In this document: one piece after another, positions 34,180-52,531 of the stretch
Position numbering within the stretch: the first letter of the stretch is position 1
How the letters are laid out: every line of letters starts with the position of its first letter
DNA from: an uncultured Actinomycetes bacterium
GTDB lineage: Bacteria; Actinomycetota; Coriobacteriia; Anaerosomatales; PHET01
Direction: 5' to 3'
Assembly (NCBI GenBank): GCA_947085035.1
Contig: CAMTUW010000005.1
Coordinates: 22,057 to 86,056 of the forward strand
Length of the DNA: 64,000 bases
The notes under the pieces: generated by a model
Seen by the model: the letters and a program-made list of their open reading frames with translations, nothing else
Told to the model about the DNA's origin: nothing
Databases searched by the model: none
Made by a program: the position numbers and the translations under genes

Positions 34180-34309
34180 TGGTAACATCCGAGTGTTCAG
34201 GCAGGCAGGTGGGCGAGCGTGTGCGGTGCCCGAATTCGCGCACGGGTGCGACCCCACCCTCCGTTGTTCGAGTGCGGCTCCATGCCGCCTTGTGAAGGAG
34301 TGGATGTAG
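34180..34309 (+). promoter_or_regulatory. ccm operon promoter and structured 5' leader
   Basis: Extended -10 TGGTAACAT, then GTGTTCAGGC; nested stems reaching to the AAGGAG RBS. Confidence 0.55.
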
Positions 34310-34999
34310 GTGAACAAGCGGGCTCGCAGTAGGTTGATCGGTGTGACGGCGATCGTGATTCTCGCGATAGCGGCCATCTTCTTCAGTCTAGGGTCTCTTG
34401 GCGGCACGGCGTACTACCGATCGGTCGAGGAGCTCGCGACGGATAACAGTCTCGCGGGTGAGCGCGTGAAGGTCGGCGGCACCGTCGTACCCGGCTCTTG
34501 GGACAAGAAGGCGAACCCCATGAACTTTGAGATCAGGGACGAGACCGATGACAAGGGCGTTGGGCCCACGGTCCGGGTGGTCTACACCGAGGGAGTTCCG
34601 GCGACATTCGGGGACGGAGTCACCGCGATCATCACAGGAGTGCTGGGTACTGATGGCGTCATCACCTCGGCTGAGATGATCACGAAGTGTCCGTCGAAGT
34701 ACGAGTCCGCCGTTGGGGCGATGTCGATCGATGACCTCCTCGCAGGCGGTGAGACCTATGTCGGCAAGACCGTCAAGGCGACCGGCTACGTCAAGACCGG
34801 CACGATCGTCGCGCCGGGTGGCGAATCCCGCTTCGTCGTCACCAACGAGAAAGGCGCGGGGGCCGAGGTCAGGGTCGCGTGGGAAGGCGCTCTGCCACAG
34901 GGTATGGCCGATGGGTCCAACGTCGTTCTCACAGGAGCGATCGGACAAAACGGTGACTTCGTGGCGACCAACGTGGCGCTCGAGGGGACCGACAAGTAG
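34310..34999 (+). CDS. ccmE: Heme chaperone CcmE, CxxxY type, with second OB-fold-like domain
   Basis: N-terminal TM, VKVGGTVVPGS, YTEGVPATF, TKCPSKY; second similar domain without the heme motif. Confidence 0.88.
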   Translation: MNKRARSRLIGVTAIVILAIAAIFFSLGSLGGTAYYRSVEELATDNSLAGERVKVGGTVVPGSWDKKANPMNFEIRDETDDKGVGPTVRVVYTEGVPATFGDGVTAIITGVLGTDGVITSAEMITKCPSKYESAVGAMSIDDLLAGGETYVGKTVKATGYVKTGTIVAPGGESRFVVTNEKGAGAEVRVAWEGALPQGMADGSNVVLTGAIGQNGDFVATNVALEGTDK

Positions 35000-35009
35000 A
35001 GCTTGATGC

Positions 35010-35042
35010 ACGCCCCGCACCTTGTCCGGTGCGGGGCGTTTT
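35010..35042 (+). terminator. Intra-operon hairpin/terminator between ccmE and ccmF
   Basis: ACGCCCCGCACC-6 nt-GGTGCGGGGCGT 12-bp stem followed by TTT. Confidence 0.7.
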
Positions 35043-35072
35043 CGTGACCGAACCGGAACAAGGGAGAAGTTC

Positions 35073-37220
35073 ATGATCGTTTTCGGGCAGTTGGCCCTCG
35101 GCCTCGCACTGCTGTGCTCGATCGTCGCGATCGGCGCTCTTTTCTGGGGCAGGAGTCTGGGCCCCAGGGACGGAGAGTCGATCACGAACGCCGGCTACTA
35201 CGCGACGTTCGCCGCGATGGGCGCCTACACCGTTACCATCCTCGTCATGGTCACGGCGTTCTTCGCCAAGGACTACTCCTTCTACTACGTCGCGCAGAAC
35301 CACTCGACTGACGCGTCGAGCCTCGCGTGGCTCTATTCGATCTCGGCCGTGTGGGCCGGTCGCGAGGGATCGCTCCTGTTCTGGGGGTGGCTGATCGCGC
35401 TGTTCGCGGGATGGGTCGCCTACCAGCGCATGGACAAGACCGATGATCTCTCGAACATGGGCATCGCGGTCACCAACATCGTGTTGGCCCTGTTCGGTGC
35501 GGCGATGCTGTTCAGCGAGCCGAACGACCCCTTCAAGCTCACCCCGCCCGAGTTCCTCTCGAACGGCCAGCTCATCGGTCAGGCTGCTGAGTGGGGCATG
35601 AACCCGTTGCTGCAGCACTGGGCGATGATCCTTCATCCACCCACACTCTTCATCGGATACGCTGGTCTGACGATCGCGTTCGCGTTCGCCATGGCCGCGC
35701 TCATCACGAACGACGCGTCGAAACTCTGGATCGACATCGTCGATCGCATCACCGTTTTCGCGTGGCTGTTCCTTGGTGCTGGAAACGGCCTCGGCGCGAT
35801 CTGGGCGTACGTGGTGCTGGGCTGGGGCGGTTACTGGGCCTGGGACCCGGTCGAGAACGCCTCGCTCCTGCCTTGGCTCACCGGTGTCGGACTGATTCAC
35901 AGCTTCACGATCTACAAGCGTCGCGATGGCTTCAAGCGTTGGACGATTCTGTTGGCAGCGGTGACATTCGCACTCGTCATCCTCGGTACGTTCATCGTGC
36001 GTTCCGGAATCGTCCAGTCGGTCCACGCGTTCACCGAGGACCCCGTCTCGTTGTGGCTGTTCCTCAGCATGATCATCGGCTCGGTCGCAGCTGCGGTGAT
36101 CGGCCTGTGGCTACGCTGGGAAACGTTCGCTGGCAACGACGAGTTCGAGTCGTTGACCAGCAAGGAAGCGGCGTATTACTTCAACAACGTGATCATGCTC
36201 GTCTCGAGCGTGCTGGTCGCCTACATGACGATGACGTCCGCGTTCCCCGCGTGGATGCCGTTCGGCGGTCAGTCGATCAGCGCGACCTCGTTCGATCTTC
36301 TCGCCCGGCCGATCGGTCTGGTGTATGCGTTCCTGCTCGCGCTGTGTCCGATCCTGCTGTGGAAGAAGACCGACGGGACGACGTTGTGGAAGCGCATCAA
36401 GTGGCCGCTCGCCGGTACGGCGGTGCTGTTCCCCTTGCTCATGTGGGAATGGTTCGCGAACCTGCGCCCCATCTACGTGTTCATGATCGCCCAGGGCGGC
36501 GAAGGCGCTCGCAAGCTTCTCGCCTTCGGTCCGGAGATCGTCTACGACGTCATCTCCATCCTCGCCTTCCTCGCCGCAGCCCTCATGTTCTCTACGACGG
36601 TGTGGCTCTTCGTCGACGGATCACGTAAGCGGGCCGCCGCGCGGGGAGAGAGTGTCTGGGCTTCGCTTGTCCACATCATCTTCAGGGCGCGCACCCAGTC
36701 GGGTGGCTACATCGCACACATCGGAATGGCGATCATCCTCGTCGGTCTCGTCGGCTCGTCGATGTATGTCCGTGATGTTCGTCTGAACGTTCCCGAGCAG
36801 GCCGGTGCGACCTTCCAAGTTGACGATTACACGTTCACTTTCCAGGGCATCTCGGAAGACCAGCTGAAGAACGGCGACATCGTCGCCAAGGCCACCTTCG
36901 CTGTCCAGCGCGACGGCGTGTCCCTGGGCACCGTGGATCCGGGGCTCACGAAGTTCGCGAGGCAGGGGCAGACCCGCCTCGACGCGCGAGTGCTCATCGA
37001 GCCGCTTCGTGACATCTTCGTGGTGTGGGAGGGCTCTGAAGAGGGCCAGATGTCGGTCAACGTGAAGATCAACCCGCTCATCTCGTTCGCATGGGGCGGT
37101 TTCGGGGTCCTGATGTTGGGCGCCGCGCTGGCCGCATGGCCGAAGAGGGCACCCGCCGCCATCGTTCCTGCCGCTCCCGTGCGCAAGAGCGCCTCGAGCA
37201 AGCGCAAAGTGGCGAAGTAG
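35073..37220 (+). CDS. ccmF: Cytochrome c heme lyase
   Basis: WAGREGSLLFW, GMNPLLQH, HPP, WGGYWAWDPVENASLLPW, SVHAF. Confidence 0.95.
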   Translation: MIVFGQLALGLALLCSIVAIGALFWGRSLGPRDGESITNAGYYATFAAMGAYTVTILVMVTAFFAKDYSFYYVAQNHSTDASSLAWLYSISAVWAGREGSLLFWGWLIALFAGWVAYQRMDKTDDLSNMGIAVTNIVLALFGAAMLFSEPNDPFKLTPPEFLSNGQLIGQAAEWGMNPLLQHWAMILHPPTLFIGYAGLTIAFAFAMAALITNDASKLWIDIVDRITVFAWLFLGAGNGLGAIWAYVVLGWGGYWAWDPVENASLLPWLTGVGLIHSFTIYKRRDGFKRWTILLAAVTFALVILGTFIVRSGIVQSVHAFTEDPVSLWLFLSMIIGSVAAAVIGLWLRWETFAGNDEFESLTSKEAAYYFNNVIMLVSSVLVAYMTMTSAFPAWMPFGGQSISATSFDLLARPIGLVYAFLLALCPILLWKKTDGTTLWKRIKWPLAGTAVLFPLLMWEWFANLRPIYVFMIAQGGEGARKLLAFGPEIVYDVISILAFLAAALMFSTTVWLFVDGSRKRAAARGESVWASLVHIIFRARTQSGGYIAHIGMAIILVGLVGSSMYVRDVRLNVPEQAGATFQVDDYTFTFQGISEDQLKNGDIVAKATFAVQRDGVSLGTVDPGLTKFARQGQTRLDARVLIEPLRDIFVVWEGSEEGQMSVNVKINPLISFAWGGFGVLMLGAALAAWPKRAPAAIVPAAPVRKSASSKRKVAK

Positions 37221-37228
37221 CCGCCCTC

Positions 37229-37960
37229 GTGAGTGACGCTACCGCGACAGATCTCGCTTTGGAGGTCCGGGCATTGTCCCGGACCTTCGGCGCGCGCAAG
37301 GCCCTCGACGACGTCACCTTCGATTTGGAGCTGGGCGCGTTCCTGTCGATCTTCGGACCGAACGGTGCGGGGAAGTCGACGCTGCTCAAGGTGCTGTCCA
37401 CACTCACCACTCCGTCCAAGGGCACGGCCAGAGTGCTGGGCCTCGACGTGGTCCAAGACGCAGTCGAGTTGCGGGAGCGCATCGGCTTCATCAGTCACAA
37501 CCCGCTGCTCTACCCGGATCTCACCGCCGAGGAGAACCTCGAGTTCTTCGCCGAGGTCTACTGCATCGATTCGCCCAAGGACCGCATCCGAGAGCTACTC
37601 GATGCGGTCGAGCTCGATCACCGTCGCCTCGATCTCGTGCGGACCTTCTCGCGCGGCATGCTCCAGAGGCTCTCGATCGCTCGCGCGTTGCTACACGACC
37701 CCGCGCTCATCTTCCTCGATGAGCCGTACTCGGGCCTCGATCCGCATGCGATGGACATCCTCGACGGGCTGATCGCCAAGATTCGTGACGGGCATACGTT
37801 CGTCATGGTGAGCCACGATCTGAGCAAGGGGCTCGAGCTGTGCACGCACGCGCTGATCCTCTCGAAGGGCAGGATCGTGTTGCACCAGGACAAGGAGTTC
37901 ATCGACGAGGACGAGTTCGCTCAGACCTACCGCACGACCGTTGGCATGGGGGTGAGCTAG
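37229..37960 (+). CDS. ccmA: Heme export ABC ATPase
   Basis: GPNGAGKST, FSRGMLQRL, LDEPYSGLD; position in ccm operon. Confidence 0.88.
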   Translation: MSDATATDLALEVRALSRTFGARKALDDVTFDLELGAFLSIFGPNGAGKSTLLKVLSTLTTPSKGTARVLGLDVVQDAVELRERIGFISHNPLLYPDLTAEENLEFFAEVYCIDSPKDRIRELLDAVELDHRRLDLVRTFSRGMLQRLSIARALLHDPALIFLDEPYSGLDPHAMDILDGLIAKIRDGHTFVMVSHDLSKGLELCTHALILSKGRIVLHQDKEFIDEDEFAQTYRTTVGMGVS

Positions 37961-38695
37961 GTGGCTGACGCCGCACCGGTCACCACATCGCGAATGTCAG
38001 GGTGGCGCCAGTTCAAGGCGATCCTGCGCAAAGACATCGTGATGGAGCTCCGCACCAAAGAGATGCTCACCTCGATGGGTCTCTACGCCCTTCTCGTGCT
38101 CGTGGTCTACTACATCACGCTGTCGCAGGCGGGCCAGGACTTCGAAGTGCGTCGCATCGCCGCCGGACTGCTGTGGCTCGCGTTCATCTTCACGTCACTT
38201 CTGGGTCTGAACCGCTCGCTCGTGCATGAGAAGGACCAGGGGTGCCTCGACGCCCTGCTGATCTCGCCCATCGATCGTCCGATCATCTTCTTCGGCAAGG
38301 CCGTGGGCAATCTCATCTTCCTGCTCATCGTAGAGGCGTTCATCGTCCCGTTGTTCTTCTTCATCTTCCTCGCATCAGCCGATGCACAGGTGATGGGTCC
38401 CGTGTGGATGATCGCGCTCGCTCTGTTGCTCGGGTCCATCGGGATCGCCGGAGTGGGAACCCTGCTCGCGACGATGTCGGTGAACACGAAGGGCAAGGAT
38501 TTCATTCTCGCCGTGCTGTTCATCCCGCTCATGTTTCCGCTGCTGCTCGCCGTCGTCGCCGGCACCTCGGTCGTGATTCAGGCCGAGATCGGATACGTCA
38601 CGACCTTCTGGCAGATGATGGCCCTGGCCGCAGGGTACGATACGATCATGTTGTTGGCGGCGTTCGCGCTCTATGAATTCGTACTCGGGGCCTGA
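37961..38695 (+). CDS. ccmB: Heme exporter protein B
   Basis: KDIVMELR, EKDQGCLDAL, six TM helices. Confidence 0.88.
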   Translation: MADAAPVTTSRMSGWRQFKAILRKDIVMELRTKEMLTSMGLYALLVLVVYYITLSQAGQDFEVRRIAAGLLWLAFIFTSLLGLNRSLVHEKDQGCLDALLISPIDRPIIFFGKAVGNLIFLLIVEAFIVPLFFFIFLASADAQVMGPVWMIALALLLGSIGIAGVGTLLATMSVNTKGKDFILAVLFIPLMFPLLLAVVAGTSVVIQAEIGYVTTFWQMMALAAGYDTIMLLAAFALYEFVLGA

Positions 38696-38727
38696 CGGGT
38701 GCGCCAGATGGATTGGAGGAGGATTCG

Positions 38728-39489
38728 GTGAGACAACTCAAGATCGCGATCGCCCTGGTGCTGGTGGGAGGGCTGCTCACCACAGCCGCGTTCCTCATGG
38801 CGTTCTTCACCGCCGAAGTCCAGCTGTTCAGCACGGTCACTTTCGACGCGCCCATCGAGACCGCGTTCTCGCTTGCGCCGCCCGAGTTCCAGCCCACCGA
38901 CGGCGGTGTCGCCTACGGAAGGCCGTGGTTCAGTCAGAAGATATTCTACTTCCACGTGCCCGTCGCGCTCGCGTCCTTCCTCATCCTGCTCATCTCGGCT
39001 GTCTACTCTGTGCGCTTCCTCATGAGCAAACGCGCCGAGTTCGACACGAAGGCGCGGATCGCGATGGAGACGTCGCTCATCTTCGTGGTGCTGACGATGA
39101 TCACCGGGGTGCTGTGGACGAGGGCGTCATGGCAGGTGTGGTGGGAGTGGGAACCGCGCCTGACCACCTACTTCATCATGATGCTGATGATGATCGCCTA
39201 CTTCGTGCTGCGAAACTCGGTGGAGGAGGAGGAGCGCCGGGCGACCTACGCGGCGGTGTTCGGCATCCTCGCGGCCATCAACGCGCCGATCTCGTTCATG
39301 ATCACGCGGGTCATCCCATCGAATCATCCCGTCGTGCTGCAACCCGGGATGGCGCCCTCGAATCTGACTCCCTTCATCTTGGGGCAGATAGGGATGCTCA
39401 TGATCGGGTATGGCATCTTCGTCGCGCGCATGAGCGAGGAGCGGCTCAGAGAACGTATCGAGATCACGAAAGAAGCCCTCGAGGGCTGA
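38728..39489 (+). CDS. ccmC: Heme exporter protein C
   Basis: KIFYFHVP, WTRASWQVWWEWEPRLT (WWD domain), SNHP. Confidence 0.9.
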   Translation: MRQLKIAIALVLVGGLLTTAAFLMAFFTAEVQLFSTVTFDAPIETAFSLAPPEFQPTDGGVAYGRPWFSQKIFYFHVPVALASFLILLISAVYSVRFLMSKRAEFDTKARIAMETSLIFVVLTMITGVLWTRASWQVWWEWEPRLTTYFIMMLMMIAYFVLRNSVEEEERRATYAAVFGILAAINAPISFMITRVIPSNHPVVLQPGMAPSNLTPFILGQIGMLMIGYGIFVARMSEERLRERIEITKEALEG

Positions 39490-39522
39490 GAGAACTCCCG
39501 AATCGAACCCGGAGGTGTCATC

Positions 39523-39708
39523 GTGGATCCTACGAACGCCGAGCTCTACCGACTGGCCCTGTACGACGCTCCATACGTGATCGGCGCCTACGCCGTCTTG
39601 TGGGTCGCCTTCGTGGGCTACCTCACGATGGTGCTGCGCCGTATCATGGGCTTGGAGAGAGAAGTCGAGGTCATCGAAGACGCTGTTGCCAAACGCCGCG
39701 GCGAGTAA
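39523..39708 (+). CDS. ccmD: CcmD-like small membrane protein
   Basis: 61 aa, YVIGAYAVLW TM then charged tail, directly after ccmC. Confidence 0.75.
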   Translation: MDPTNAELYRLALYDAPYVIGAYAVLWVAFVGYLTMVLRRIMGLEREVEVIEDAVAKRRGE

Positions 39709-39733
39709 GGTCGCAGAAGGGATCGGCATCACA

Positions 39734-40585
39734 GTGGAGCAGGCCTCGGTAGTCATGTTCTGGTTCGCTTTCGCACTCTATATCTGCGCGTCGGTGCTCT
39801 ATGCGTATCAGTTCGGACTCAAGCACCACAAGGTCGGTTGGTGGGCCCGATTCGCCACCGGCGCCGGCTTCATCATGCAGACGCTGTCGATCGGCATGAA
39901 CTCGATGGTGAACGATGGCACGCCGCTCACGGGGTCGAACCAGCTCGTCTTGGCGTCTTGGGCGCTCGTCTTGCTCTACTTCGTCATGGAGCACGTGATG
40001 CGCATACGTGCGTACGGGGCGTTTCTGGTGCCCGTCGCGGCCTTGGCGATGGCCGTCGCTCAGCTCATGGGTGGGGGCGGTTCAGGATCTCTCGTCCCGC
40101 CGGATCCCAACATCGCGACCCAGCTTGACAGTTGGGGCGTGGGTATTCATGTCGCACTCATCGTCTTCGCGAACGCGGGCTTCGCCGTTGGCGCCGTCTC
40201 CTCAGCGCTCTACCTCTTCCAGGAGTCTCAACTGAAGAGGCACCGCACCAGCCGGGTGGGTCGCAGGCTCCCGTCGCTTGCCCTGCTCCAAGTCGTCGCG
40301 CGTCGCGCGATCGCGCTTGCGTTTCCGGTGTATTCGGCCGGTCTGGGTCTCGGGATCATCCGGGCGATGCAGGTCGACGTGGGCGGCTGGTGGCTCGATC
40401 CGCGCATCATGATGTCGGGTATCGTCTTGCTCACCTTCGCGGTCTACCTCAGATTCGTCTACCGTCCCGACATCTCGAGCCGTACCAGCGCGTGGCTGGC
40501 GGTCACGGGATTCGTCTTCGTGGTGCTTCTCGCGATCATCGCTCGTACACTGCCGATGGGATTCCACATCTTCGGTCAGCTGTAG
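39734..40585 (+). CDS. CcsA/HemX-like membrane protein (cytochrome c assembly family)
   Basis: About 8 TM, GIHV, LYLFQESQLK..RLPSL, WWLDPR; precedes sirC-like gene. Confidence 0.8.
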   Translation: MEQASVVMFWFAFALYICASVLYAYQFGLKHHKVGWWARFATGAGFIMQTLSIGMNSMVNDGTPLTGSNQLVLASWALVLLYFVMEHVMRIRAYGAFLVPVAALAMAVAQLMGGGGSGSLVPPDPNIATQLDSWGVGIHVALIVFANAGFAVGAVSSALYLFQESQLKRHRTSRVGRRLPSLALLQVVARRAIALAFPVYSAGLGLGIIRAMQVDVGGWWLDPRIMMSGIVLLTFAVYLRFVYRPDISSRTSAWLAVTGFVFVVLLAIIARTLPMGFHIFGQL

Positions 40586-40595
40586 GACGGTATCA

Positions 40596-41258
40596 GTGGC
40601 CGAACAGACCAAGCGTTTCTACCCGGCCTTCCTCGATCTGGAGGGTCGTTCGGTCGTCGTCATCGGACCGGGCCGTCGTGCTGAGCGCAAGGCTCGCCAG
40701 CTTGCGGGGTACGGCGCCAGCGTCGTGCTGATCACGCCCGAGCCCTCGATCTCGATTCTCCAGTCACAGGTCGAAGGGCTCCTCGACGTCGAGTCGCGCG
40801 CTTATGTACGCGGTGATCTCGAGGGCGCGACGCTGGTTTTTTGCGACGACACCGACGCCGAGACGCGCGGGGCGGTCGCGGCCGAGGCGCGTGGCGTGGG
40901 GTGCTTGACCAACATCACCGGCGATGCATCGCTCACGAGCTTCCTCGCGCCCAGCATCATCCACCGCGAGCCGCTTCAGATCGCTGTCTCGACCGGCGGC
41001 GTGGTTCCGCAGCTCGCCAAGCACCTGAGGCGGACGCTCGCCGAGCAGTTCGGCGAGGAGTGGGCGGCGTATTCGCGGCTTCTCGCCGAGGTCAGGGGGG
41101 TCGCGATCGAGCGTCTCACCTCGACTGCGGCTATCGACGATGTGTTAGAGGCGGTCATCGTCTCGGATCTGCTCGAGCGTGTGCGCCTCGGCGACGCGCC
41201 TTCGGCGACACGGGTCTTCGAGGAGTTCGCACCTGCCGAGGAGGGGGTCATCTCATGA
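40596..41258 (+). CDS. Precorrin-2 dehydrogenase / sirohydrochlorin ferrochelatase (SirC, CysG N-terminal type)
   Basis: YPAFLDLEGRSVVVIG, AERKA, LQIAVSTGG..P.LAKHLR. Confidence 0.85.
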   Translation: MAEQTKRFYPAFLDLEGRSVVVIGPGRRAERKARQLAGYGASVVLITPEPSISILQSQVEGLLDVESRAYVRGDLEGATLVFCDDTDAETRGAVAAEARGVGCLTNITGDASLTSFLAPSIIHREPLQIAVSTGGVVPQLAKHLRRTLAEQFGEEWAAYSRLLAEVRGVAIERLTSTAAIDDVLEAVIVSDLLERVRLGDAPSATRVFEEFAPAEEGVIS

Positions 41259-42073
41259 GTGCTCGACAAACCGCGATCGTCACGGGGGGGAGCTCGGGCA
41301 TCGGTCTCGCGATCGCCAAGGCTCTCGCCGCCCACGGCTACGACGTCGCCCTCATCGCGCGCGATGTCGTCCGGCTCGAGGCCGCCGCCGAGGCGGTGCG
41401 CCATGGCGCCGCACGCGCCGACGTCCGCGTCGCCTGGCGAAGCGCCTGTCTGTCGTCGTGGGAGGATACGCAGACCGCGTTCGAGCAGCTCTTCGCCGAG
41501 GGTTTCTCGCCGGACGTGCTGGTGTGCTCCGCCGGCGTCATCATCCCCGGCGAGTTCATCACGATGGCGCCCGAGGACTTCGAGGCGAACCTGACCGCCG
41601 GTTTCTGGGGTGTGGTCCATGCTTGTCGGGCAGCGGCTCCCGGGATGGTGAAGCGGGGGCGGGGCCACATCGTCAACGTCTCCTCCGTCGCCGGATTCCT
41701 GGGTATCTACGGCTACACCGGCTACTCGGCAGCCAAGTACGCGGTCATGGGATTCTCCGAGGCCCTGCGCTTCGAGATGCGGCCTCACGGGGTCCGAGTC
41801 TCGGTTGTCTGCCCGCCCGACACCGACACGCCCGGCCTTGCGTACGAGCGTTCCCTGCGACCGGTCGAGACCGAGGTCATCGCCGGAGCGATCAAGCCCA
41901 TTCCCGCCGAGAAGGTCGCCCACGCTGTCATGCGAGCGATCGAGGCCGGCCGTTACTTGGTCATCCCAGATGCGCTCTCGGCGTTCTACTTCCGGCTCAA
42001 GGGCATCGCGCCCGAGTTGTTCCACGCCATCGTTGACAGCGACATCGCGAAGGCGCGAAAGGGCAAGCGGTAG
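41255..42073 (+). CDS. Short-chain dehydrogenase, KDSR-like
   Basis: TGGSSGIG, YSAAK catalytic motif, PPDTDTPG. Confidence 0.85.
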   Translation: MSARQTAIVTGGSSGIGLAIAKALAAHGYDVALIARDVVRLEAAAEAVRHGAARADVRVAWRSACLSSWEDTQTAFEQLFAEGFSPDVLVCSAGVIIPGEFITMAPEDFEANLTAGFWGVVHACRAAAPGMVKRGRGHIVNVSSVAGFLGIYGYTGYSAAKYAVMGFSEALRFEMRPHGVRVSVVCPPDTDTPGLAYERSLRPVETEVIAGAIKPIPAEKVAHAVMRAIEAGRYLVIPDALSAFYFRLKGIAPELFHAIVDSDIAKARKGKR

Positions 42074-42239
42074 TCCAGTGCGGCGGTGCTCCTGAGAGTC
42101 ACCCGGGATCGCGCGTGCTCTTCACAAGAGGTCGAGCGGCGTGAACACATCAGACACCCGAAAGGCGGACTATTGATGTCGGACCGGGTGACGCCCCTCC
42201 ATCTGCCTGACACGTCCGCACTGGCAGGGAAGTAGCCGC

Positions 42240-42295
42240 GTTCACGAACTCCGCTTGCGGCGTTCACATCCGGTTCAAACCCGGGGCGTAGATTC
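42240..42295 (+). promoter_or_regulatory. OmpR-type direct repeats and promoter
   Basis: TTCAC at 42241 and 42263, TTCAA at 42274 (22- and 11-bp spacing), -10-like TAGATT at 42289. Confidence 0.55.
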
Positions 42296-42336
42296 AACTT
42301 GTACGATCGGTCCCGCAGTATCGAGAGGAGAGCACG

Positions 42337-42903
42337 ATGAAGATGAGAAGGGTAGCGGCGCTCATGGCCGCAGCGCTCGTGGTCGGCGTGGTAGCCGGCA
42401 ACGTGGCGACCGGAACGGCAGCGCCAACCGCCGACACCACGGCCGGAACCGTCACGGGACTCGGCCTGCGCCTCGGCGCGGTCGTGCGTGACGCGGGTGG
42501 TCGCTTGGGCGACGTGGTCGCTGGTCTCACTGGCCTCACGGCCGACGAGGTTCACGCACAGCGCGAAGCAGGCACTTCGTTCTCGGCTATCGCAAAGAGC
42601 AAGGGCGTCGCCTCAACGGCGGTCGTCGCGGAGGCACTGAAGATCCGCTCCGAGGTTCTCGAGAAGAAGGTCGCCGACGGCACCATCACTCAGGATCAGG
42701 CCGATGCGGCTCTTGCTCGCATGAAGACGCGCGTCACCGAGCGTGTCGAGGCGACCGGCGAACCAGTGCGCGGCGGTATGGGTCGGGGAATGGGCGGCAA
42801 GGGCCGGGGCATGCGTGACGGCTCCGGCGGCGGTCAGGGTTGCGGCATGGGCACAGGCTGCAGTGGAGGCACGTGCGCTCAGGCCCCGGCGACCACGCAG
42901 TAG
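42337..42903 (+). CDS. Secreted helical protein with Gly/Met/Cys-rich tail
   Basis: Signal peptide; VADGTITQDQAD motif; GMGRGMGG..GCGMGTGCSGGTC tail. Confidence 0.75.
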   Translation: MKMRRVAALMAAALVVGVVAGNVATGTAAPTADTTAGTVTGLGLRLGAVVRDAGGRLGDVVAGLTGLTADEVHAQREAGTSFSAIAKSKGVASTAVVAEALKIRSEVLEKKVADGTITQDQADAALARMKTRVTERVEATGEPVRGGMGRGMGGKGRGMRDGSGGGQGCGMGTGCSGGTCAQAPATTQ

Positions 42904-42921
42904 GGCTCTCGCGGTCAACGG

Positions 42922-42962
42922 GTTCGAGGGGCGGGGCCGAACCACGGCTCTGCCCCTCGAAC
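42922..42962. terminator. Long GC hairpin
   Basis: GTTCGAGGGGCGGGGCCG-5 nt-CGGCTCTGCCCCTCGAAC; no T tail. Confidence 0.55.
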
Positions 42963-43034
42963 GTCTCGAGCCCGACGGCGAACGCGCCTGTCGTGGGATA
43001 CTCCCATGGAGATGACGCTTTGAGCGGAGTGGAG

Positions 43035-43709
43035 ATGCCGACTGTCCTCGTCGTAGATGACAACGAGAAGATCGTGGAGGTGCTCGCCGAGTATTTGGCG
43101 GATGCGGGCTACGCGACGCTGACGGCGTACGACGGCCCGGCGGCGCTCGCGCAGTTCGCCGCGAATCGGCCCGATCTCGCCTTGCTCGACATCATGTTGC
43201 CCGGTGTCGACGGCATCGAGCTCACGAAGCGCTTCCAGGCCGAAGGCGTCCCTGTGATCCTCGTGACGGCGAAGGGTGACGAGGTCGATCGGCTCGTCGG
43301 TCTCGAGATCGGGGCCGACGACTACATCGTCAAGCCGTTCTCGCCACGGGAAGTGGTTGCGCGGGTGAAGGCCGTGCTGCGGCGCTGTACACGCACTGCC
43401 GACTCCATGGCGCCCGTGGCAGTCGGTGACCTGTCCATCGACCCTGACCGGCGAGCGGTGCACGTCGCAGGCGAGTCGGTTCATCTGACGCGAACGGAGT
43501 TCGACATCCTGCTCACGTTGGCGTCTCATCCTGGGCGCGTCTACACCCGGCTGCAGTTGCTCGACGCTGCCAGCGGGGACGCGTTCGAAGGTTACGAGCG
43601 CACGATGGACGCCCACGTGAAGAACATCCGCAAGAAGCTCGGTGACGATTCCAAGCATCCGCGCTACATCCGCACCGTTTTCGGTGTCGGCTACAAGCTG
43701 GAAGCGTGA
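43035..43709 (+). CDS. OmpR family response regulator (BaeR-like)
   Basis: VVDD, LDIMLP, KPFSPRE, RTVFGVGY. Confidence 0.92.
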   Translation: MPTVLVVDDNEKIVEVLAEYLADAGYATLTAYDGPAALAQFAANRPDLALLDIMLPGVDGIELTKRFQAEGVPVILVTAKGDEVDRLVGLEIGADDYIVKPFSPREVVARVKAVLRRCTRTADSMAPVAVGDLSIDPDRRAVHVAGESVHLTRTEFDILLTLASHPGRVYTRLQLLDAASGDAFEGYERTMDAHVKNIRKKLGDDSKHPRYIRTVFGVGYKLEA

Positions 43710-43713
43710 GCCG

Positions 43714-44838
43714 ATGCGTCGGCTCAGTCTCAGAGCGCAGGTCTTCGTCTCTATCCTGAGTGTCTCGCTCGTGTCCGCGGGTATCGTGGGACTTGCTGCT
43801 CGCACCACGCTCACGAGGGCGTTCGAGAACTACCTGGCGTCCTTGCCCACGCCGTCGAGAATGGGCGGCGGGCGGCGCATGGGTCGCATGATTCTGTCCG
43901 GCGCCGAGCAGGCTTTCGTCTCTGGGGTCGACCGCAGCGTGCTGATGGCATCGCTCGTCGCGATCGGCGTCGCGGCCGTGGTGGCGTTGGTGCTTGCCGC
44001 ATACCTCGCTCGGCCGATCATGCGGCTCGAAGAGGCGGCGCACGGGCTGGCCGAGGGTGACTTGAACCACCGTGTCGACGTGGATGGGCCCGCCGAAGTA
44101 GCGGCGCTCGGTGAGGCTTTCAACGCAATGGCCGACTCGCTTGCGCAAGCCGAAGAACTGCGACGACGAATGACCGCCGATGTGGCCCACGAACTGCGCA
44201 ACCCGCTCGCTGCGGCCCGGGCCCAAGCCGAAGGCATGGTCGACGGGGTTCTGCAGCGCGACGACACGCGCCTCGCCTCGCTCGTCGAGGATCTCGCACA
44301 CCTCTCGGCCCTCATCGACGATCTACAGGAACTGGCCATGGCCGAAGCGGGCCGCCTCAGCTACGACATCCGCGAGGTCGACCTGTCCGAGCTGGCGCGT
44401 CGCGAGGCGGAGCGCGCCGTGGCGCTGCTGAACAGCGGCGTTACCTTGGCGCCCTACGACGGACCGACGGGGCCCGTGCTCGTCTCGGGAGATGAGCGAC
44501 GGCTCGCGCAAGTCCTGCGGAATCTGCTGTCGAACGCTGCACGGCACACCGAGGCGGGCACCGTTGGGGTGAGCGTGGCGGTCGAGGATGGCGGGGTGAG
44601 AGTGAGTGTGGTCGACACAGGGCGGGGCATTGATGTCGACGATCTCACGCATGTCTTCGAGCGGTTCTACCGTGCCGACAAGGCACGCGCATCCCACACG
44701 GGCGGAGCGGGACTGGGGCTTGCCATCTCGCGCACGATCATCGTCGACCACGGCGGCGAGGTCTTTGCGCAAAGTACGCCGGGCGAAGGCACGACAGTGG
44801 GCTTCATGCTGCCGCCGCTTGCTGCCACCGATGCCTGA
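43714..44838 (+). CDS. Sensor histidine kinase (BaeS-like)
   Basis: ADVAHELRNPL, NLLSNA, DTGRG, GAGLGLAI; RMGGGRRMGRM external loop. Confidence 0.9.
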   Translation: MRRLSLRAQVFVSILSVSLVSAGIVGLAARTTLTRAFENYLASLPTPSRMGGGRRMGRMILSGAEQAFVSGVDRSVLMASLVAIGVAAVVALVLAAYLARPIMRLEEAAHGLAEGDLNHRVDVDGPAEVAALGEAFNAMADSLAQAEELRRRMTADVAHELRNPLAAARAQAEGMVDGVLQRDDTRLASLVEDLAHLSALIDDLQELAMAEAGRLSYDIREVDLSELARREAERAVALLNSGVTLAPYDGPTGPVLVSGDERRLAQVLRNLLSNAARHTEAGTVGVSVAVEDGGVRVSVVDTGRGIDVDDLTHVFERFYRADKARASHTGGAGLGLAISRTIIVDHGGEVFAQSTPGEGTTVGFMLPPLAATDA

Positions 44839-44910
44839 CTATGCGCAGCGCCGCCCCCGCCACGGTAGGACCGGGACCACGGCGACTGAGACCCCGACCA
44901 TCACCTATAG

Positions 44911-45336
44911 GTGCAGTAGGGTACCAGCTGGCTCGCCGCGACTCTCGTCGTCATGTTGGTGCTCGGACTCGCGGCCAACGCATACGGGGAAGAGCCCGAC
45001 TACGAGGGCACGTACGTCGGGATGGTCACCACCAACACGGGGCGCAAGGTTCCCATCATCGTGTACGCGCGCGGACAAGGGGATCAAGCCGTACTGACAC
45101 TGGGTGTCGAAGGCTACACGGTCAGAGTCGCCGACGCGGCGCTTCACCTTGGACACCGGCTATCCGAGGATCTCGATTTGTTCAGCGAGTGTTCGTGGTT
45201 CTGGACTCAATCGGCTCCGGCTCTCTCTGCGTGCGGTGCGCCCATCGTCGATCTTCAGGAGGAGGTCCGGCGCGATGTCGTCGGCCAGATGCTCGACTAC
45301 GCGGCCAACGGGTTGCGGTACTGGCCGATCTCCTAG
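44911..45336 (+). pseudogene. Mosaic remnant of several unrelated genes
   Basis: GTG-CAG-TAG stop before a signal-peptide-like run; AbiEii-like ALHLGHRLSEDLDLFSE piece; RRDVVGQMLDYAAN piece. Confidence 0.6.
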
Positions 45337-45438
45337 TCGGCCGCAGCCGCGTCCTGGATCTCCTCGATCAGCCGCCTCGACCGATGCAGTTGGTAGTGAT
45401 ACGCTGAAGCAGTAGTTTAATACTGATTGGGAGCCGTC

Positions 45439-46245
45439 ATGCCAACCAAGTCCTCGATGACGTCACGGTATCTCGAGGAGCACGCCGTGTTCACGCTCGA
45501 TGAGTTCCTGTCGGATGTGGACAACAGCGTCAGCGAGTCCACGCGCTACACGAACCTGCGCAACGCCGTGGAGCGCGAGCAGGCGCGCCGACTCACGCGT
45601 GGACTGTACGCGTCGAATATGGGTCCGTACCGCGACCGAACTCCACGTGCCGCGCTGGTAGCCGCCAAGAGCGCCCCTGACGCCGTTCTCGCGTACCACA
45701 CCGCCCTCGAGGCGCACGGCGTGGCGCACTCCGTCTCGCGCCGAGTGCTGTTCGTGTCAGGGCGGCGTGTCAGCATGTTCACCGTCGATGGCTACCGCTT
45801 CGAGCGGGTTGCTCCTCCGAAGCGTCTTGCCGACCCTACCGCGGAGCGGCCATATGTGCAGCTCGTGCGCTCGGGCGACGATCTCGTCACTGTGACAACG
45901 CCAGAGCGCACACTGGTCGACTGCCTGATGAGGCTCGACCTGGCCGGAGGCTTGGAGGAGACACTGCGAAGCGCGGGGGGCTTCCCGAACATGGATTCCG
46001 GGCGAGTTGCGGAGTACGTGAGCGCCCTGGGGTCACCGACCGCAGCGGCCAGGGCCGGATGGCTCCTCGACCTCGGGCGCCGGATGTGGCACGTCTCAGA
46101 ATCGGATCTCGATCGGCTCCGCACGATGGTCGGGCGTGGGCCCCACCGGCTGACTCCCGGATCGACGTTCTCCGCGGAGTTGATCGCAGCATGGCGGCTG
46201 TACGCGCCCTCAGGACTGCCGTATGAGGAGTGGATCCGATCGTGA
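45439..46245 (+). CDS. Type IV TA antitoxin, AbiEi family
   Basis: N-terminal wHTH (VFTLDEF..RLTRGLY), AYHTALEAHG, VTTPERTLVDC. Confidence 0.85.
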   Translation: MPTKSSMTSRYLEEHAVFTLDEFLSDVDNSVSESTRYTNLRNAVEREQARRLTRGLYASNMGPYRDRTPRAALVAAKSAPDAVLAYHTALEAHGVAHSVSRRVLFVSGRRVSMFTVDGYRFERVAPPKRLADPTAERPYVQLVRSGDDLVTVTTPERTLVDCLMRLDLAGGLEETLRSAGGFPNMDSGRVAEYVSALGSPTAAARAGWLLDLGRRMWHVSESDLDRLRTMVGRGPHRLTPGSTFSAELIAAWRLYAPSGLPYEEWIRS

Positions 46246-47177
46246 CCCGGCCGATCCTCGCGGTGCCCAAGGGATTCGACCCGCCCGTCATCGAGAAGGT
46301 CGAACGCCTTCTCGAGATGCTTGACGCCATCGCGAACAACCCCTACCTCGAGTCCCGGTTGATCCTGCACGGCGGCACCGCCCTGAACGTGTTCCACGCG
46401 GACATGCCCAGGCTCTCCGTGGACATCGACCTCGCATACGCGGGCTCTCAGACGGTGGAGGGCATGCTCGAGGAGCGGCCCAAGGTCGATGGAGAGATCA
46501 GAGCGCTTGCAGCCAAACTCGGCTACGCCGCAAGGTCGCTTCAAAACGAGCACAGCGGGCAGTCATACCGTCTGCGGTACGGCACCGATTCCATCAAGGT
46601 GGACGTGAGTTACCTCGCGCGAGTGCCGCTCCTCGAACCGGTCATGGTCACGTGTTCGCGTTGTCGGCCGGCCGTCGCCTTCGCAACGCTCCAGCTGCCC
46701 GAGCTCGTCGCCGGCAAGGTGTCGGCTCTGGTGGATCGCACCGCGCCTCGCGACCTGTATGACATCGCGAGACTGGCGAGCGCAGTGGAGGCTCCCCGTC
46801 TGGACAGTGGCTTGGCACGGTCGGTGATCCTCCATGCCGTGTCGCTGACCGACCGCTTCCCCTTCGAACGCGATCCCGCTGGTGCCGCCGACAAGTTCGC
46901 GGAGCCGACCGAGGCGCAGGTGCAGGAGCTTCGCGGTGTGCTGACCGCTGCAGATCCGGCTGGCTTCGACGACATGCGTGCGTGTGTCGCTGCGTACCTC
47001 AGCCCACTGTCGATACTGACGCCGGCTGAGGCTGAGTACATGGAACTCCTGGGTACCACCGGACAACACGCTCCCGAGTTGCTGTTCGGCGGATGGCCGG
47101 ATATCGCCGAGCGCGCCCGCGTCAGCCCCGTGGTCGCTTGGAAGGTGCAGAACCTGCGCAGGATGCTCGGTCGCTGA
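46230..47177 (+). CDS. Type IV TA toxin, AbiEii nucleotidyltransferase
   Basis: LHGGTALN, RLSVDIDL, KVSALVDR..RDLYD; overlaps antitoxin. Confidence 0.88.
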   Translation: MDPIVTRPILAVPKGFDPPVIEKVERLLEMLDAIANNPYLESRLILHGGTALNVFHADMPRLSVDIDLAYAGSQTVEGMLEERPKVDGEIRALAAKLGYAARSLQNEHSGQSYRLRYGTDSIKVDVSYLARVPLLEPVMVTCSRCRPAVAFATLQLPELVAGKVSALVDRTAPRDLYDIARLASAVEAPRLDSGLARSVILHAVSLTDRFPFERDPAGAADKFAEPTEAQVQELRGVLTAADPAGFDDMRACVAAYLSPLSILTPAEAEYMELLGTTGQHAPELLFGGWPDIAERARVSPVVAWKVQNLRRMLGR

Positions 47178-47240
47178 CAACGGCGCCGATCGCACGGTAC
47201 GCGTGGAGGATCCGAGAACCATGAGGATGGAGGATGGAAG

Positions 47241-48956
47241 ATGTCGTCTGACCTGAGCTTCCGTGAGTTCATCGAGCGCGTCGAGAGTCGAGTTGACGGC
47301 TACTCGATCGAGACCCTGCGGGAGATAATGCTCGACTGGGCCAAGAACACGCCTCCCAAGAAGCGTCATGACTTCTTGGACAAGCTCGTCCCTCCCGCGC
47401 CATCACCACATCCGGTGTCCGCCGCGGAGTTGCTGGATGAGATCGATGCCCTCGCCACGCGAGTGCGCAACGGTGACTACTGCACCGGTTGGGGTTGGGA
47501 CGATGCGATTCGGGAGGAAAGAGACTGGGGCGACGAGAGCTGGACGTACGAGATGGACCCTCTCTTCGCCGAAGCGCGTGAGGCTCTCATGAACGAGCGC
47601 CCCGGATTGGCCGAAGAAGCGTACACGGCGTTGTTCGACATTCTCGAGATGGGCGACGAGCCCGGGCACCTGCCCGGAAGCCGCGACCCTCGCGACATCC
47701 TGGACACCGACCTCGAAGAGGCGCGCCGACTCTACCTGCAGGCGGTCTATCGGTCAGCAGAGCCCGACGCGCGACCTTTCGCGCTGATGCAGGCCATCGA
47801 CAGATTCGGCTATTCGGTCGGAGCCGACCTCGATCTGCGGCGCGTTGCCGATGCGGCACCTGGACCTCTGCCGGACCTCTCGGGCTTCCTTCCGAACTGG
47901 ATCGATCTGCTGCGAAGCAGGAACGACCGCGTCGGCCGCTATCTGCGGCGCGAGGCGGTCACCCTCTCCGGTGGGACTTCGGCTGTTGCCGCATTGGCGC
48001 GCGAAGAAGGAGACGATCATCCCGAGGCCTATGTCGACTGGATCGGACGCCTGGAAGAGGAGTCGGACTTCGAGGCGATGGCCGAGGCGGCGACCGAGGG
48101 ACTCGCGCGAGTCCACGAGGACCTCGTCGTGCGCGCGGATATCGCCGAAGGCCTTATGCGGGCAGGCGAGCGACTCGGCGATGCGTCGATGCAGTTGACG
48201 GGATGTCGTGAGGCTTTCCGCTCGAGACCGTCGCTATCCGATCTCCTGCGTCTTCTCTCGCTTGCCGGACTCCAGGGCCGCCACGCGGATGAGAGTGCGC
48301 AAGCGATAGCAAGAGTACGCTCGCTCTCGGAGAAGCAGGAACGCTCCAGGCGGGGCTTCCTTCGCGAGGATTACGAGACGCCGCGAAGTCAGGCACCCGA
48401 GGGCCTGTTACCGCAGGCGTATCTGCTCTCCGGGCGGTATGAAGACGCATTCGAGCTCTGCGACGACGACAGCCCTCTTGGTTGGAGCTACGGTGGCAAC
48501 CCGAAGGGTCTAGTGGTCCCGTTCTTCCTCATGCTCCTCTCCTGCGAGCCTGACTTGCGCGTCCCGGTTGGCTTGGAGCGGCTCTGGGAACCGGCGATGC
48601 GGACGACGTGGCAGCGCTCTGTCGGCGAGGACGTCGCGTCGAGGTTCCGGCTAGCCGCCATGGAGATCATCCGGTCTATTCAGTTGTCGGAGGGCGAGGC
48701 GACGAAGTACCTGCGTTGGTGTGTCGAGCAGACCGGCAAACGAGTGGACGCCATCGTCGGAGAGAAGCACCGCGGCAGCTACGGCAAGGCGGCGGACCTG
48801 CTGGTGGCGACCGCCGAAGTGCTTGCAAAGAAGAAAGCGAGATCCGACGGCGACGCGCTGATCACCACGTACCGCCAGCGATACAGCCGCCACTCGGCAT
48901 TCCAGAGCGAGCTGCGCCGCGCTCTCCAAGGGTCCACGCTACTTGCCGTGGGATAG
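47241..48956 (+). CDS. Uncharacterised 571-aa helical protein
   Basis: Long ORF with GGAGG RBS; GWGWDD..DWGDESW and HRGSYGKAA..YSRHSAF segments; no function recognised. Confidence 0.75.
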   Translation: MSSDLSFREFIERVESRVDGYSIETLREIMLDWAKNTPPKKRHDFLDKLVPPAPSPHPVSAAELLDEIDALATRVRNGDYCTGWGWDDAIREERDWGDESWTYEMDPLFAEAREALMNERPGLAEEAYTALFDILEMGDEPGHLPGSRDPRDILDTDLEEARRLYLQAVYRSAEPDARPFALMQAIDRFGYSVGADLDLRRVADAAPGPLPDLSGFLPNWIDLLRSRNDRVGRYLRREAVTLSGGTSAVAALAREEGDDHPEAYVDWIGRLEEESDFEAMAEAATEGLARVHEDLVVRADIAEGLMRAGERLGDASMQLTGCREAFRSRPSLSDLLRLLSLAGLQGRHADESAQAIARVRSLSEKQERSRRGFLREDYETPRSQAPEGLLPQAYLLSGRYEDAFELCDDDSPLGWSYGGNPKGLVVPFFLMLLSCEPDLRVPVGLERLWEPAMRTTWQRSVGEDVASRFRLAAMEIIRSIQLSEGEATKYLRWCVEQTGKRVDAIVGEKHRGSYGKAADLLVATAEVLAKKKARSDGDALITTYRQRYSRHSAFQSELRRALQGSTLLAVG

Positions 48957-48970
48957 CCGCAGCCGCTCAG

Positions 48971-48990
48971 GCGGACAGCGGACAGCGGAC
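48971..48990 (+). repeat. Heptamer tandem repeat (GCGGACA), about 3 copies
   Basis: gcggacagcggacagcggac read directly. Confidence 0.7.
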
Positions 48991-49033
48991 GCGCCCCGAG
49001 TGGTAGCCTCGCGTGACAGTGGACTCAAGCCGA

Positions 49034-49212
49034 TGATAGAATTGCAGTGTTCAGGCGTGAAGCAGTGGTGCGTTCCAGAGTTGACACAGATCGCCCTCGT
49101 CGGGCCTGCTTGCCTGAACAACACGCACCGCATTCGACGAGGGCGTACCTGTGCCCGCAGGCCAGCTTCGTGGCTGTGGGCTGCTGCGACACGATGAGGC
49201 GAGACTGACCAC
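49034..49212 (+). promoter_or_regulatory. hemA promoter and structured 5' leader
   Basis: Extended -10 TGATAGAAT, then GTGTTCAGGC; two long interleaved helices and a further hairpin. Confidence 0.6.
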
Positions 49213-52455: not shown

Positions 52456-52531
52456 GGGGACGTGGCTCAGCTGGGAGAGCGCTGCCTTCGCAAGGCAGAG
52501 GTCGGCGGTTCGAATCCGCTCGTCTCCACCA
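52456..52531 (+). tRNA. tRNA-Ala(CGC)
   Basis: 76-nt cloverleaf, acceptor GGGGACG/CGTCTCC with G3:U70, anticodon arm CTGCC-TTCGCAA-GGCAG, encoded CCA; TTGACA at 52383. Confidence 0.97.

Follow-up and report, generated by a model that had tools for sequence, protein, structure and literature searches.

A conserved 5′ leader element shared by the hemA and ccm operons of one order of Coriobacteriia: a candidate RNA control system acting between transcripts

The ccm and hem operons and their common 5′ module

The operons for cytochrome c maturation (ccm) and haem synthesis (hem) lie close to each other in a 64,000-nt stretch of DNA (contig CAMTUW010000005.1 of assembly GCA_947085035.1, positions 22,057 to 86,056, hereafter the window) from an uncultured bacterium of the order Anaerosomatales within the Coriobacteriia. 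The ccm operon reads ccmE (34310), ccmF, a gene for a ccmA-like ATPase (37091), ccmB, an unknown open reading frame (ORF), ccmC and a cysG-N-terminal-like gene (40596), while the hem operon comprises hemA (49213), hemC, hemD, a tRNA-Ala gene and hemB. Pfam confirmed the identities of ccmE (GTG start at 34310) and hemA (ATG start at 49213). Here we analyse an element that heads both operons, which a preliminary description of the window had proposed as a heme-linked regulatory RNA. All leader features described below are on the forward strand.

In the ccm leader, an extended −10 box TGGTAACAT (34180-34188) is followed after 4 nt by the decamer GTGTTCAGGC (34193-34202). The same decamer (49047-49056) follows the extended −10 box TGATAGAAT (49034-49042) of hemA after the same gap, so that both arrangements lie exactly where the preliminary description had placed them. 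The hemA promoter consists of GTGACA, 18 nt and a TG-extended TAGAAT (49013-49042) and has 10 of 12 consensus matches, with 0.0 expected from shuffled sequences. For ccm, no −35 box was found and the consensus scan was not passed, leaving the extended −10 alone, whose position is taken by TGNTANNAT in relatives. Counting 7 nt from the −10, the first transcribed base of both operons is predicted to be the G of GTTCAGG. A single metatranscriptome run (0.05 share of words) gave short contigs of other organisms on conserved parts of the hemA coding sequence and none over the leader, and is uninformative on transcription.

Protein homology was used to retrieve the hemA and ccmE loci of 40 relatives, of which 19 belong to the same family, each of 21 further families of the order contributing one (genomes are designated by G numbers, that of the window being G000). 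GTTCAGG was found in the equivalent position in 29 of 30 hemA and 29 of 30 ccmE upstream regions of this protein-anchored set, which spans 22 families, and the single exception in both sets was the same genome, G025. Alignments revealed a common layout in which the −10 is followed by 4-5 nt, a module M (GTTCAGGCA), GCAG and a module N (GGTGCG(T)); both leaders of the window open with the M core GTTCAGGC after the extended −10, then GCAG and GGTGCG. The hemA copy carries M as GTTCAGGC(G) at 49049-49057, GCAG at 49062-49065 and N as GGTGCG(T) at 49067-49073, the 5′ module as a whole spanning 49049-49073. In ccm, M is present as the full 15-mer, which in this genome is GTTCAGGCAGGCAGG at 34195-34209, the predicted 5′ end of the mRNA; N, with the consensus GCGGTGCGT, lies 8-10 nt downstream, and its core GCGGTGC occupies 34223-34229. 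The proposal of a shared, conserved element beginning near the predicted transcription start of both operons is borne out by these alignments.

The decamer itself is not enriched, since this genome has 3 exact copies in 2.05 Mb compared to 2 for a reversed-pattern control; with at most one mismatch, the window holds 10 matches against 4.49 expected. The third exact copy (C10:193456) has no promoter context and was set aside as probably due to chance. It is conservation across relatives, and not enrichment within a single genome, that argues against a chance origin of the shared element. At the level of the order, GTTCAGGCARGY occurred about 4 times per genome in 41 genomes compared to about 0.8 for the control, an approximately 5-fold enrichment. 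Matches of GTTCAGGCARGY in coding DNA were rejected as members because they corresponded to P-loop GSGKS codons and to the antisense strand of a ThiF-like gene. In every case M is on the sense strand and follows a −10. Taken together, we regard the element as very probably a real, conserved RNA element.

The P3 hairpin and the predicted pseudoknot of the hemA leader

About 25 variable nt after its 5′ module, the hemA leader contains a near-invariant block, CGCCCTCGCCGG-G-CCTGCTTGCCTGAAC-AAC(A)-ACGCACCGC-T-CCGGCGAGGGCG, whose outer 12-mers form a hairpin that we call P3. In the window, the 5′ strand of P3 is CGCCCTCGTCGG (49092-49103) and its 3′ strand is TCGACGAGGGCG (49134-49145). The loop of about 30 nt is made up of two blocks, M′ (CCTGCTTGCCTGAAC, 49105-49119), which complements M and occurs only once in the genome, and N′ (ACGCACCGC, 49123-49131), which complements N. 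M′ is the reverse complement of GTTCAGGCAAGCAGG and N′ that of GCGGTGCGT, and the complementarity to M and N covers the entire P3 loop except for the AAC(A) linker. The preliminary description had proposed a long helix between the 5′ strand of the hemA leader and CTGCTTGCCTGAACA, which is indeed found at 49106-49120. Pairing of the 5′ strand with CTGCTTGCCTGAAC is conserved; its complement, however, resides within the P3 loop, so that a pseudoknot or three-way junction is formed in place of a simple closing helix. The decisive structure of this leader, the covarying 12-bp hairpin P3, was absent from that description.

To assemble a larger set, we scanned 185,579 species genomes with an M′-N′ pattern. 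The scan returned at least 80 loci; among the matches listed, 68 were hemA-type leaders, mostly from metagenome-assembled genomes labelled Coriobacteriia, and 12 were chance matches in unrelated taxa, which were dropped. Alignment A1 combined 28 protein-anchored leaders with 47 from the scan, giving 75 distinct hemA leaders, and left out G033, which carries the element and was missed by the regular expression, and G025, which lacks it. The pattern forces M′ to be invariant in the 47 scan rows and not in the 28 protein-anchored ones.

All 12 pairs of P3 were paired in 100% of the cells of A1, and RNAalifold gave the same hairpin. Both sides changed at four pairs: U-A alternates with C-G (54/21), C-G is replaced by U-A and by A-U or U-A at two more pairs, and one G-C becomes A-U; this genome carries one of these changes (GTCG/CGAC). 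The alignment also contained 15 G-U cells in P3, which would be A-C on the opposite strand, and therefore the sense strand is the one that folds. Compensatory changes were likewise found at two pairs of N:N′, namely 35-99 (GC 55, GU 12, AU 5) and 23-104 (GC 53, GU 3, AU 2). M:M′ was paired in 92.8% of cells, with one-sided changes to G-U only. When P3, M:M′ and N:N′ were considered together, 94.2% of cells were paired compared to 35-44% when the partners were slid. A matching change in M:M′ was observed in a single genome, G170, which lies outside A1: its M′ CCACGCUUGCCUGAAC and N′ CGCAUC fit its own M GUUCAGGCGAGCG and N AUGCGU. RNAfold placed P3 in the minimum free energy (MFE) fold of the leader of this genome (−74.9 kcal/mol), a nested alternative with M:M′ reaching −65.4 kcal/mol. 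From this covariation we conclude that the 5′ module (M...N) of hemA probably pairs in cis with the loop blocks M′ and N′ to form a pseudoknot. The crossing helices may be modelled as two U-shaped strands that build two helices atop P3, in which case the AAC(A) linker would close a three-way junction.

The element measures about 105 nt and has what is expected of a riboswitch-type RNA, that is, a conserved structured domain with covariation in a 5′ leader. Between P3 and the ATG the sequence is variable except for ACCTRTG and GAGGCGAG, a putative Shine-Dalgarno (SD) region that together with the hemA start codon occupies 49196-49215. Neither a forward-strand terminator nor a clear SD-sequestering alternative was found in the hemA leader. 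The P3 5′ strand was considered as an anti-SD sequence and rejected, because P3 is changed in G033 while the SD region is unchanged; a leader peptide was rejected on account of 1-nt indels inside the invariant block and of the variable leader length. In one relative, G165, the hemA leader is present as two identical copies that face opposite ways, about 14 kb from each other on the same contig (C2:14006 and 27995; L147 and L164); an inverted duplication or an artefact of assembly may account for this.

Of the 68 genomes sampled from the window's order, 63 contain the M′-N′ block, as a single copy except in G165, which has two. None of the 83 genomes that represent other orders of the class contains it, and controls gave 0. 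Three of the five pattern-negative genomes of the order carry sequence variants, bringing the element to 66 of 68. G025 and G153 have no hemA element and also no M on ccm.

The ccm leader, further leaders with M and the surrounding genes

Module M of the ccm leader complements hemA M′ with two G-U pairs. Positions 1-12 of M were pairable with hemA M′ in all 29 ccm leaders that carry M, and variation was restricted to C8U (1), A10G (12), C12U (3) and A13G (13), with pairing kept through G-U. In all 35 genomes compared, the ccm M was a stronger partner of hemA M′ than the M of hemA itself, with a mean of −29.6 compared to −22.7 kcal/mol and of −9.7 kcal/mol for shuffled sequences. The N consensus of ccm is in turn the reverse complement of hemA N′. 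A variant of N′, ACGCACUGC (U for C, U104), is present in 6 genomes. Of these, G023 and G042 have GCAGUGCGU as their ccm N and G044 has one that starts with GCAG; G043 and G045 keep the G, a wobble partner, and in G041 the ccm N is unclear. GCAGUG was found in the ccm N of 0 of 29 other genomes, and G023, G042 and G044 span both P3 types. This concordance (3/6 versus 0/29) has a probability of about 0.003 by a hypergeometric count made by hand and uncorrected for kinship. In G129 and G157, the 5′ module of hemA is without a clear N; N′ is retained and still pairs with the ccm N.

As for the fold of the ccm leader, the preliminary description had proposed local stems as well as a long helix of the 5′ strand with TGCCGCCttgTGAA (34283-34296) running into the ribosome-binding site. 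For this genome, the MFE fold contains the local stems (34208-34258), GGTGGG (34208-34213) pairing with CCCACC (34253-34258) and enclosing CGTGTGCG (34218-34225) paired with CGCGCACG (34237-34244); an equivalent pairing of the spacer with a C-rich stretch was clear in about 7 of 29 relatives and not significant overall. The long helix was not recovered when RNAalifold was applied to 28 ccm leaders. The only pairing returned was that of GUUCA in M with UGAAC in the GUGAAC that begins at the ccmE start codon (GAAGGAG SD and GTG, 34294-34312), which consists of 5 invariant pairs without covariation and is hence uninformative.

Inspection of the extra GTTCAGGCARGY sites uncovered two further classes of leaders with M, both of them on membrane-protein operons. 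Class 3 precedes a gene for a 146-aa membrane protein beginning SDQDFFFDEDE and then one for a TPR membrane protein, whose match to the CcmH/CycH TPR family was sub-threshold only. In this genome it lies on contig C8 (C8:14857), where TATACT is followed after 7 nt by GTTCAGGCAAGC; M was found in 13 of 29 protein-anchored class-3 loci, mostly of the window's own family, and in a shortened form in two. The gene headed by class 4 has no annotation; its product is membrane-anchored, about 185 aa long and devoid of CXXCH motifs. In the class-4 leader, the −10 is followed by a 5′ GC hairpin, which is maintained, then by M and, after 8-10 nt, by the SD. M was found in at least 17 of 30 class-4 loci, two loci being unreadable. 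The class-4 leader of this genome (C6:51284-51423) has kept the hairpin and the SD while its M has decayed to GACGCCAAGC, and regulon membership therefore turns over between close relatives. Isolated cases of M were also seen ahead of a response-regulator/kinase operon (G006) and of other genes. The presence of M on these membrane-protein and single-case leaders implies a controlled gene set wider than haem. None of the ccm, class-3 and class-4 leaders has M′, N′ or P3. The coupling of haem synthesis with cytochrome c maturation that had been put forward in the preliminary description is partly supported: the element is common to both operons, and it also heads two unannotated membrane-protein operons.

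Several further features of the window were recorded. The region 40841-48956 between the two operons resembles an insertion and encodes an SDR protein, a DUF2680 protein, a response regulator and kinase, unknown ORFs and an AbiEii toxin-type protein; the distance between ccmE and hemA is 14.9 kb here, compared to about 7-10 kb in relatives with both genes on the same contig. Upstream of the DUF2680, response-regulator and kinase genes, GCGTTCAC is directly repeated, its two copies being separated by about 32 nt (42228-42270); these repeats are likely the operator of this two-component system, unrelated to M. Having these repeats and no M, the system was rejected as a part of the M regulon. The tRNA-Ala(CGC) gene of the hem operon is located at 52456-52531, between hemD and hemB. 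The cysG N-terminal-type gene (precorrin-2 dehydrogenase/ferrochelatase) that ends the ccm operon (40596-41258) hints at a link with the sirohaem branch. The ORF between ccmB and ccmC (38673-39752, 359 aa) had no Pfam or NCBIfam match and could be a lineage-specific ccm component.

Readings of the element and their implications

The reading that we favour, tentatively and at somewhat less than an even chance, is an order-specific RNA control system that is centred on the 5′ leader of hemA and whose loop acts across transcripts. Direct pairing between the transcripts, that is, of the hemA loop with the ccm module, is held with the same reserve and is suggested by the extended complementarity, of the trans-antisense type, that is kept across species in the ccm leaders and in classes 3 and 4. 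The P3 loop of hemA would be the hub of this system. It would pair in cis with its own weaker 5′ module or alternatively bind in trans the stronger 5′ modules of ccm and other mRNAs, which would compete with the cis module, so that the amounts of hemA and ccm transcripts might set each other's translation or stability. On the ccm side, capture of M and N could remodel the hairpin around N that holds a C/U-rich anti-SD stretch. A more elaborate and, to our judgement, doubtful version takes the hemA leader as a dual-function RNA in which the loop pairs with the 5′ ends of ccm and other mRNAs against a built-in weaker decoy, with haem synthesis and haem attachment balanced by mRNA titration that is possibly gated by a tetrapyrrole at the three-way junction.

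Several observations weigh against pairing across transcripts. The changes seen in ccm M are compatible with wobble pairing, yet as no more than four sites vary they constitute marginal evidence, and M:M′ of hemA shows no both-side change in A1, where the 3′ strand is invariant, partly by construction in 47 of the 75 rows. The ccm N has partners in cis, ACGCACACUGC downstream in G042 and, in the genome of the window, UCGCGCACG pairing with CGUGUGCGG, and because of these its covariation with hemA N′ is possibly indirect. Positions 8-9 of the ccm N vary independently of hemA N′ (G001, G012, G030 and G020). In predicted ccm folds M is not consistently free (unpaired probability 0.40 versus 0.33), nor is it consistently paired. 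A switch between spacer, anti-SD and SD in ccm was tried and abandoned, being clear in about 7 genomes and not significant over 29 (mean z −0.13). In addition, the other members of the regulon have no known function in haem metabolism, the transcription start sites of ccm and hemA are predictions from the −10 only, and counts across relatives are not phylogenetically independent.

One alternative is a leader that acts exclusively in cis, in which the M-N module or the folded domain of M:M′, N:N′ and P3 would be recognised by an RNA-binding protein or by a small molecule such as a tetrapyrrole. According to this explanation, hemA would have the full domain, whereas ccm and the other leaders would have only a binding module for the same factor, with no contact between transcripts. 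The near-invariant core beside covarying stems is laid out like an aptamer, hemA and ccm are a gene context suited to a haem-related ligand, and a passage in a 2022 review (PMC9971707) calls haem riboswitches “conspicuously absent” among the known ones. The cis partners of ccm N also fit such a leader, and the joint loss of the element from hemA and ccm in G025 and G153 is equally compatible with the loss of a shared factor. What this explanation does not account for is that hemA M′ and N′ fit the ccm version better than their own module in every genome compared and that M and N complementarity covers the whole P3 loop; moreover, leaders without M′, N′ and P3 would be unable to form the same pocket. 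On balance we consider it possible, though on the unlikely side. A DNA operator at M that overlaps position +1 and binds a repressor or an activator, with M′ of hemA as a second, inverted copy about 55 bp downstream and P3 as a separate feature, seems to us improbable. M directly follows the −10 in three leader classes, as is classic for a repressor site, it is strongly conserved without compensatory change, and in G006 it stands ahead of a response-regulator/kinase operon. However, M is neither palindromic nor a direct repeat and so lacks the symmetry of an operator. In those three classes M lies 4-8 nt from the −10; in class 4 the gap widens to 22-25 nt, and there it is the distance to the SD that is fixed, at 8-10 nt, and hemA's own copy is spaced differently internally (GGCA-NNNN-GCAG), which makes it a different DNA site. 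The adjoining N:N′ covaries as RNA, and the substitutions in M preserve RNA pairing through G-U.

The position of M at the predicted 5′ terminus, the burial of the hemA 5′ end in a helix and the lack of any terminator or clear SD-sequestering alternative found in hemA are what a constitutive 5′ element would also display, for example a 5′-terminal sequence governing mRNA stability or promoter escape without any switch, the hemA pseudoknot protecting the 5′ end. We give this explanation slightly less credit than the operator, as it leaves unexplained a near-invariant 30-nt loop in nearly all genomes of the order, the presence of N in ccm and the co-loss at both operons. By far the least probable is tRNA sensing in the manner of a T-box, in which the anticodon loop of tRNA-Leu(CAG) would be bound by M′ (CCUGAA) and the 3′ end of the same tRNA by N (UGGUGCG). 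The anticodon-loop region GGTTCAGGT of this tRNA (C10:175802-175887 in this genome) contains the same heptamer GUUCAGG as M, and UGGUGCG in the hemA N complements its 3′-terminal CGCACCA; in this respect codon-like and acceptor-end-like complementarity, as in T-box leaders, can be read in the motif. Yet Rfam gave no T-box match (RF00230 type), and the order of the elements is reversed, the codon-like block lying 3′ of the acceptor-complementary one. The M/M′ match spans 15 nt, far past an anticodon, and that of the ccm N extends over 9 nt to N′ (GCGGUGCGU with ACGCACCGC) and not to the CCA end. The complementarity is to the leader's own 5′ module and covers 15 + 9 nt. Genes for aminoacyl-tRNA synthetases or for amino acids play no part, a connection of leucine with the genes in question is not evident, and the hem operon contains a tRNA-Ala gene. 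We judge the resemblance of M and N to tRNA-Leu(CAG), which is one of sequence, to be coincidental.

With Rfam 15, the whole window gave only a tRNA and no other family at the gathering threshold. A permissive scan of both leaders up to E = 10 returned as best matches unrelated eukaryotic families (E 0.95-8.1), far below gathering, in agreement with the preliminary description, which had recognised no known riboswitch. No description of such a leader was found in the literature searched (open-access PubMed Central and bioRxiv). We rate the element as a new class of structured regulatory leader.

Among known systems, the favoured control by the hemA loop most resembles base-pairing RNAs with a hairpin-loop seed, such as small RNAs (sRNAs) derived from 5′ untranslated regions and sponges. 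As in these RNAs, an invariant loop sequence present in a single copy is complementary to several mRNAs in their 5′ regions, conservation is higher in the seed than in any one target, and one target class has its site beside the SD. In contrast, the seed is found here inside the leader of a protein-coding mRNA that has its own, weaker cis target, the two blocks of complementarity (M′, N′) come in swapped order, which implies a junction and not one duplex, and neither an sRNA gene of its own nor a terminator or processing site was found. Riboswitches and other pseudoknotted cis-regulatory leaders, such as the pseudoknotted preQ1 and SAM-II classes, share with the hemA element the leader of a biosynthetic operon, the near-invariant core, the covarying stems and the pseudoknot between a loop and an upstream strand; unlike them, the hemA element has no Rfam match and no evident expression platform (no terminator), and half of its motif recurs alone on other mRNAs. 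In Corynebacterium, the HrrSA and ChrSA two-component systems respond to haem and act via DNA-binding response regulators. They likewise co-ordinate haem-related operons, but through DNA-binding regulators, whereas the features described here covary as RNA.

To our knowledge, neither a natural RNA sensor for haem synthesis nor a regulator of it at the RNA level is known. If the hemA leader did combine titration with gating by a tetrapyrrole, it would be the first natural haem-linked riboswitch, and if the transcripts do pair, they would represent an unusual case of two operon mRNAs that regulate each other through their leaders. At about 105 nt the system is compact; it covaries clearly, its partner leaders form a defined set, and it is directly testable in vitro. 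Independently of the mechanism, the element cleanly marks one environmental order of Coriobacteriia, being present in 66 of the 68 genomes sampled from it and in none of 83 from other orders. A passage in PMC9686372 states that isolates of this group (OPB41/Anaerosomatales) carry many multihaem cytochromes. Overall, the element bears on how anaerobes with many multihaem cytochromes match the supply of haem to the machinery that attaches it.

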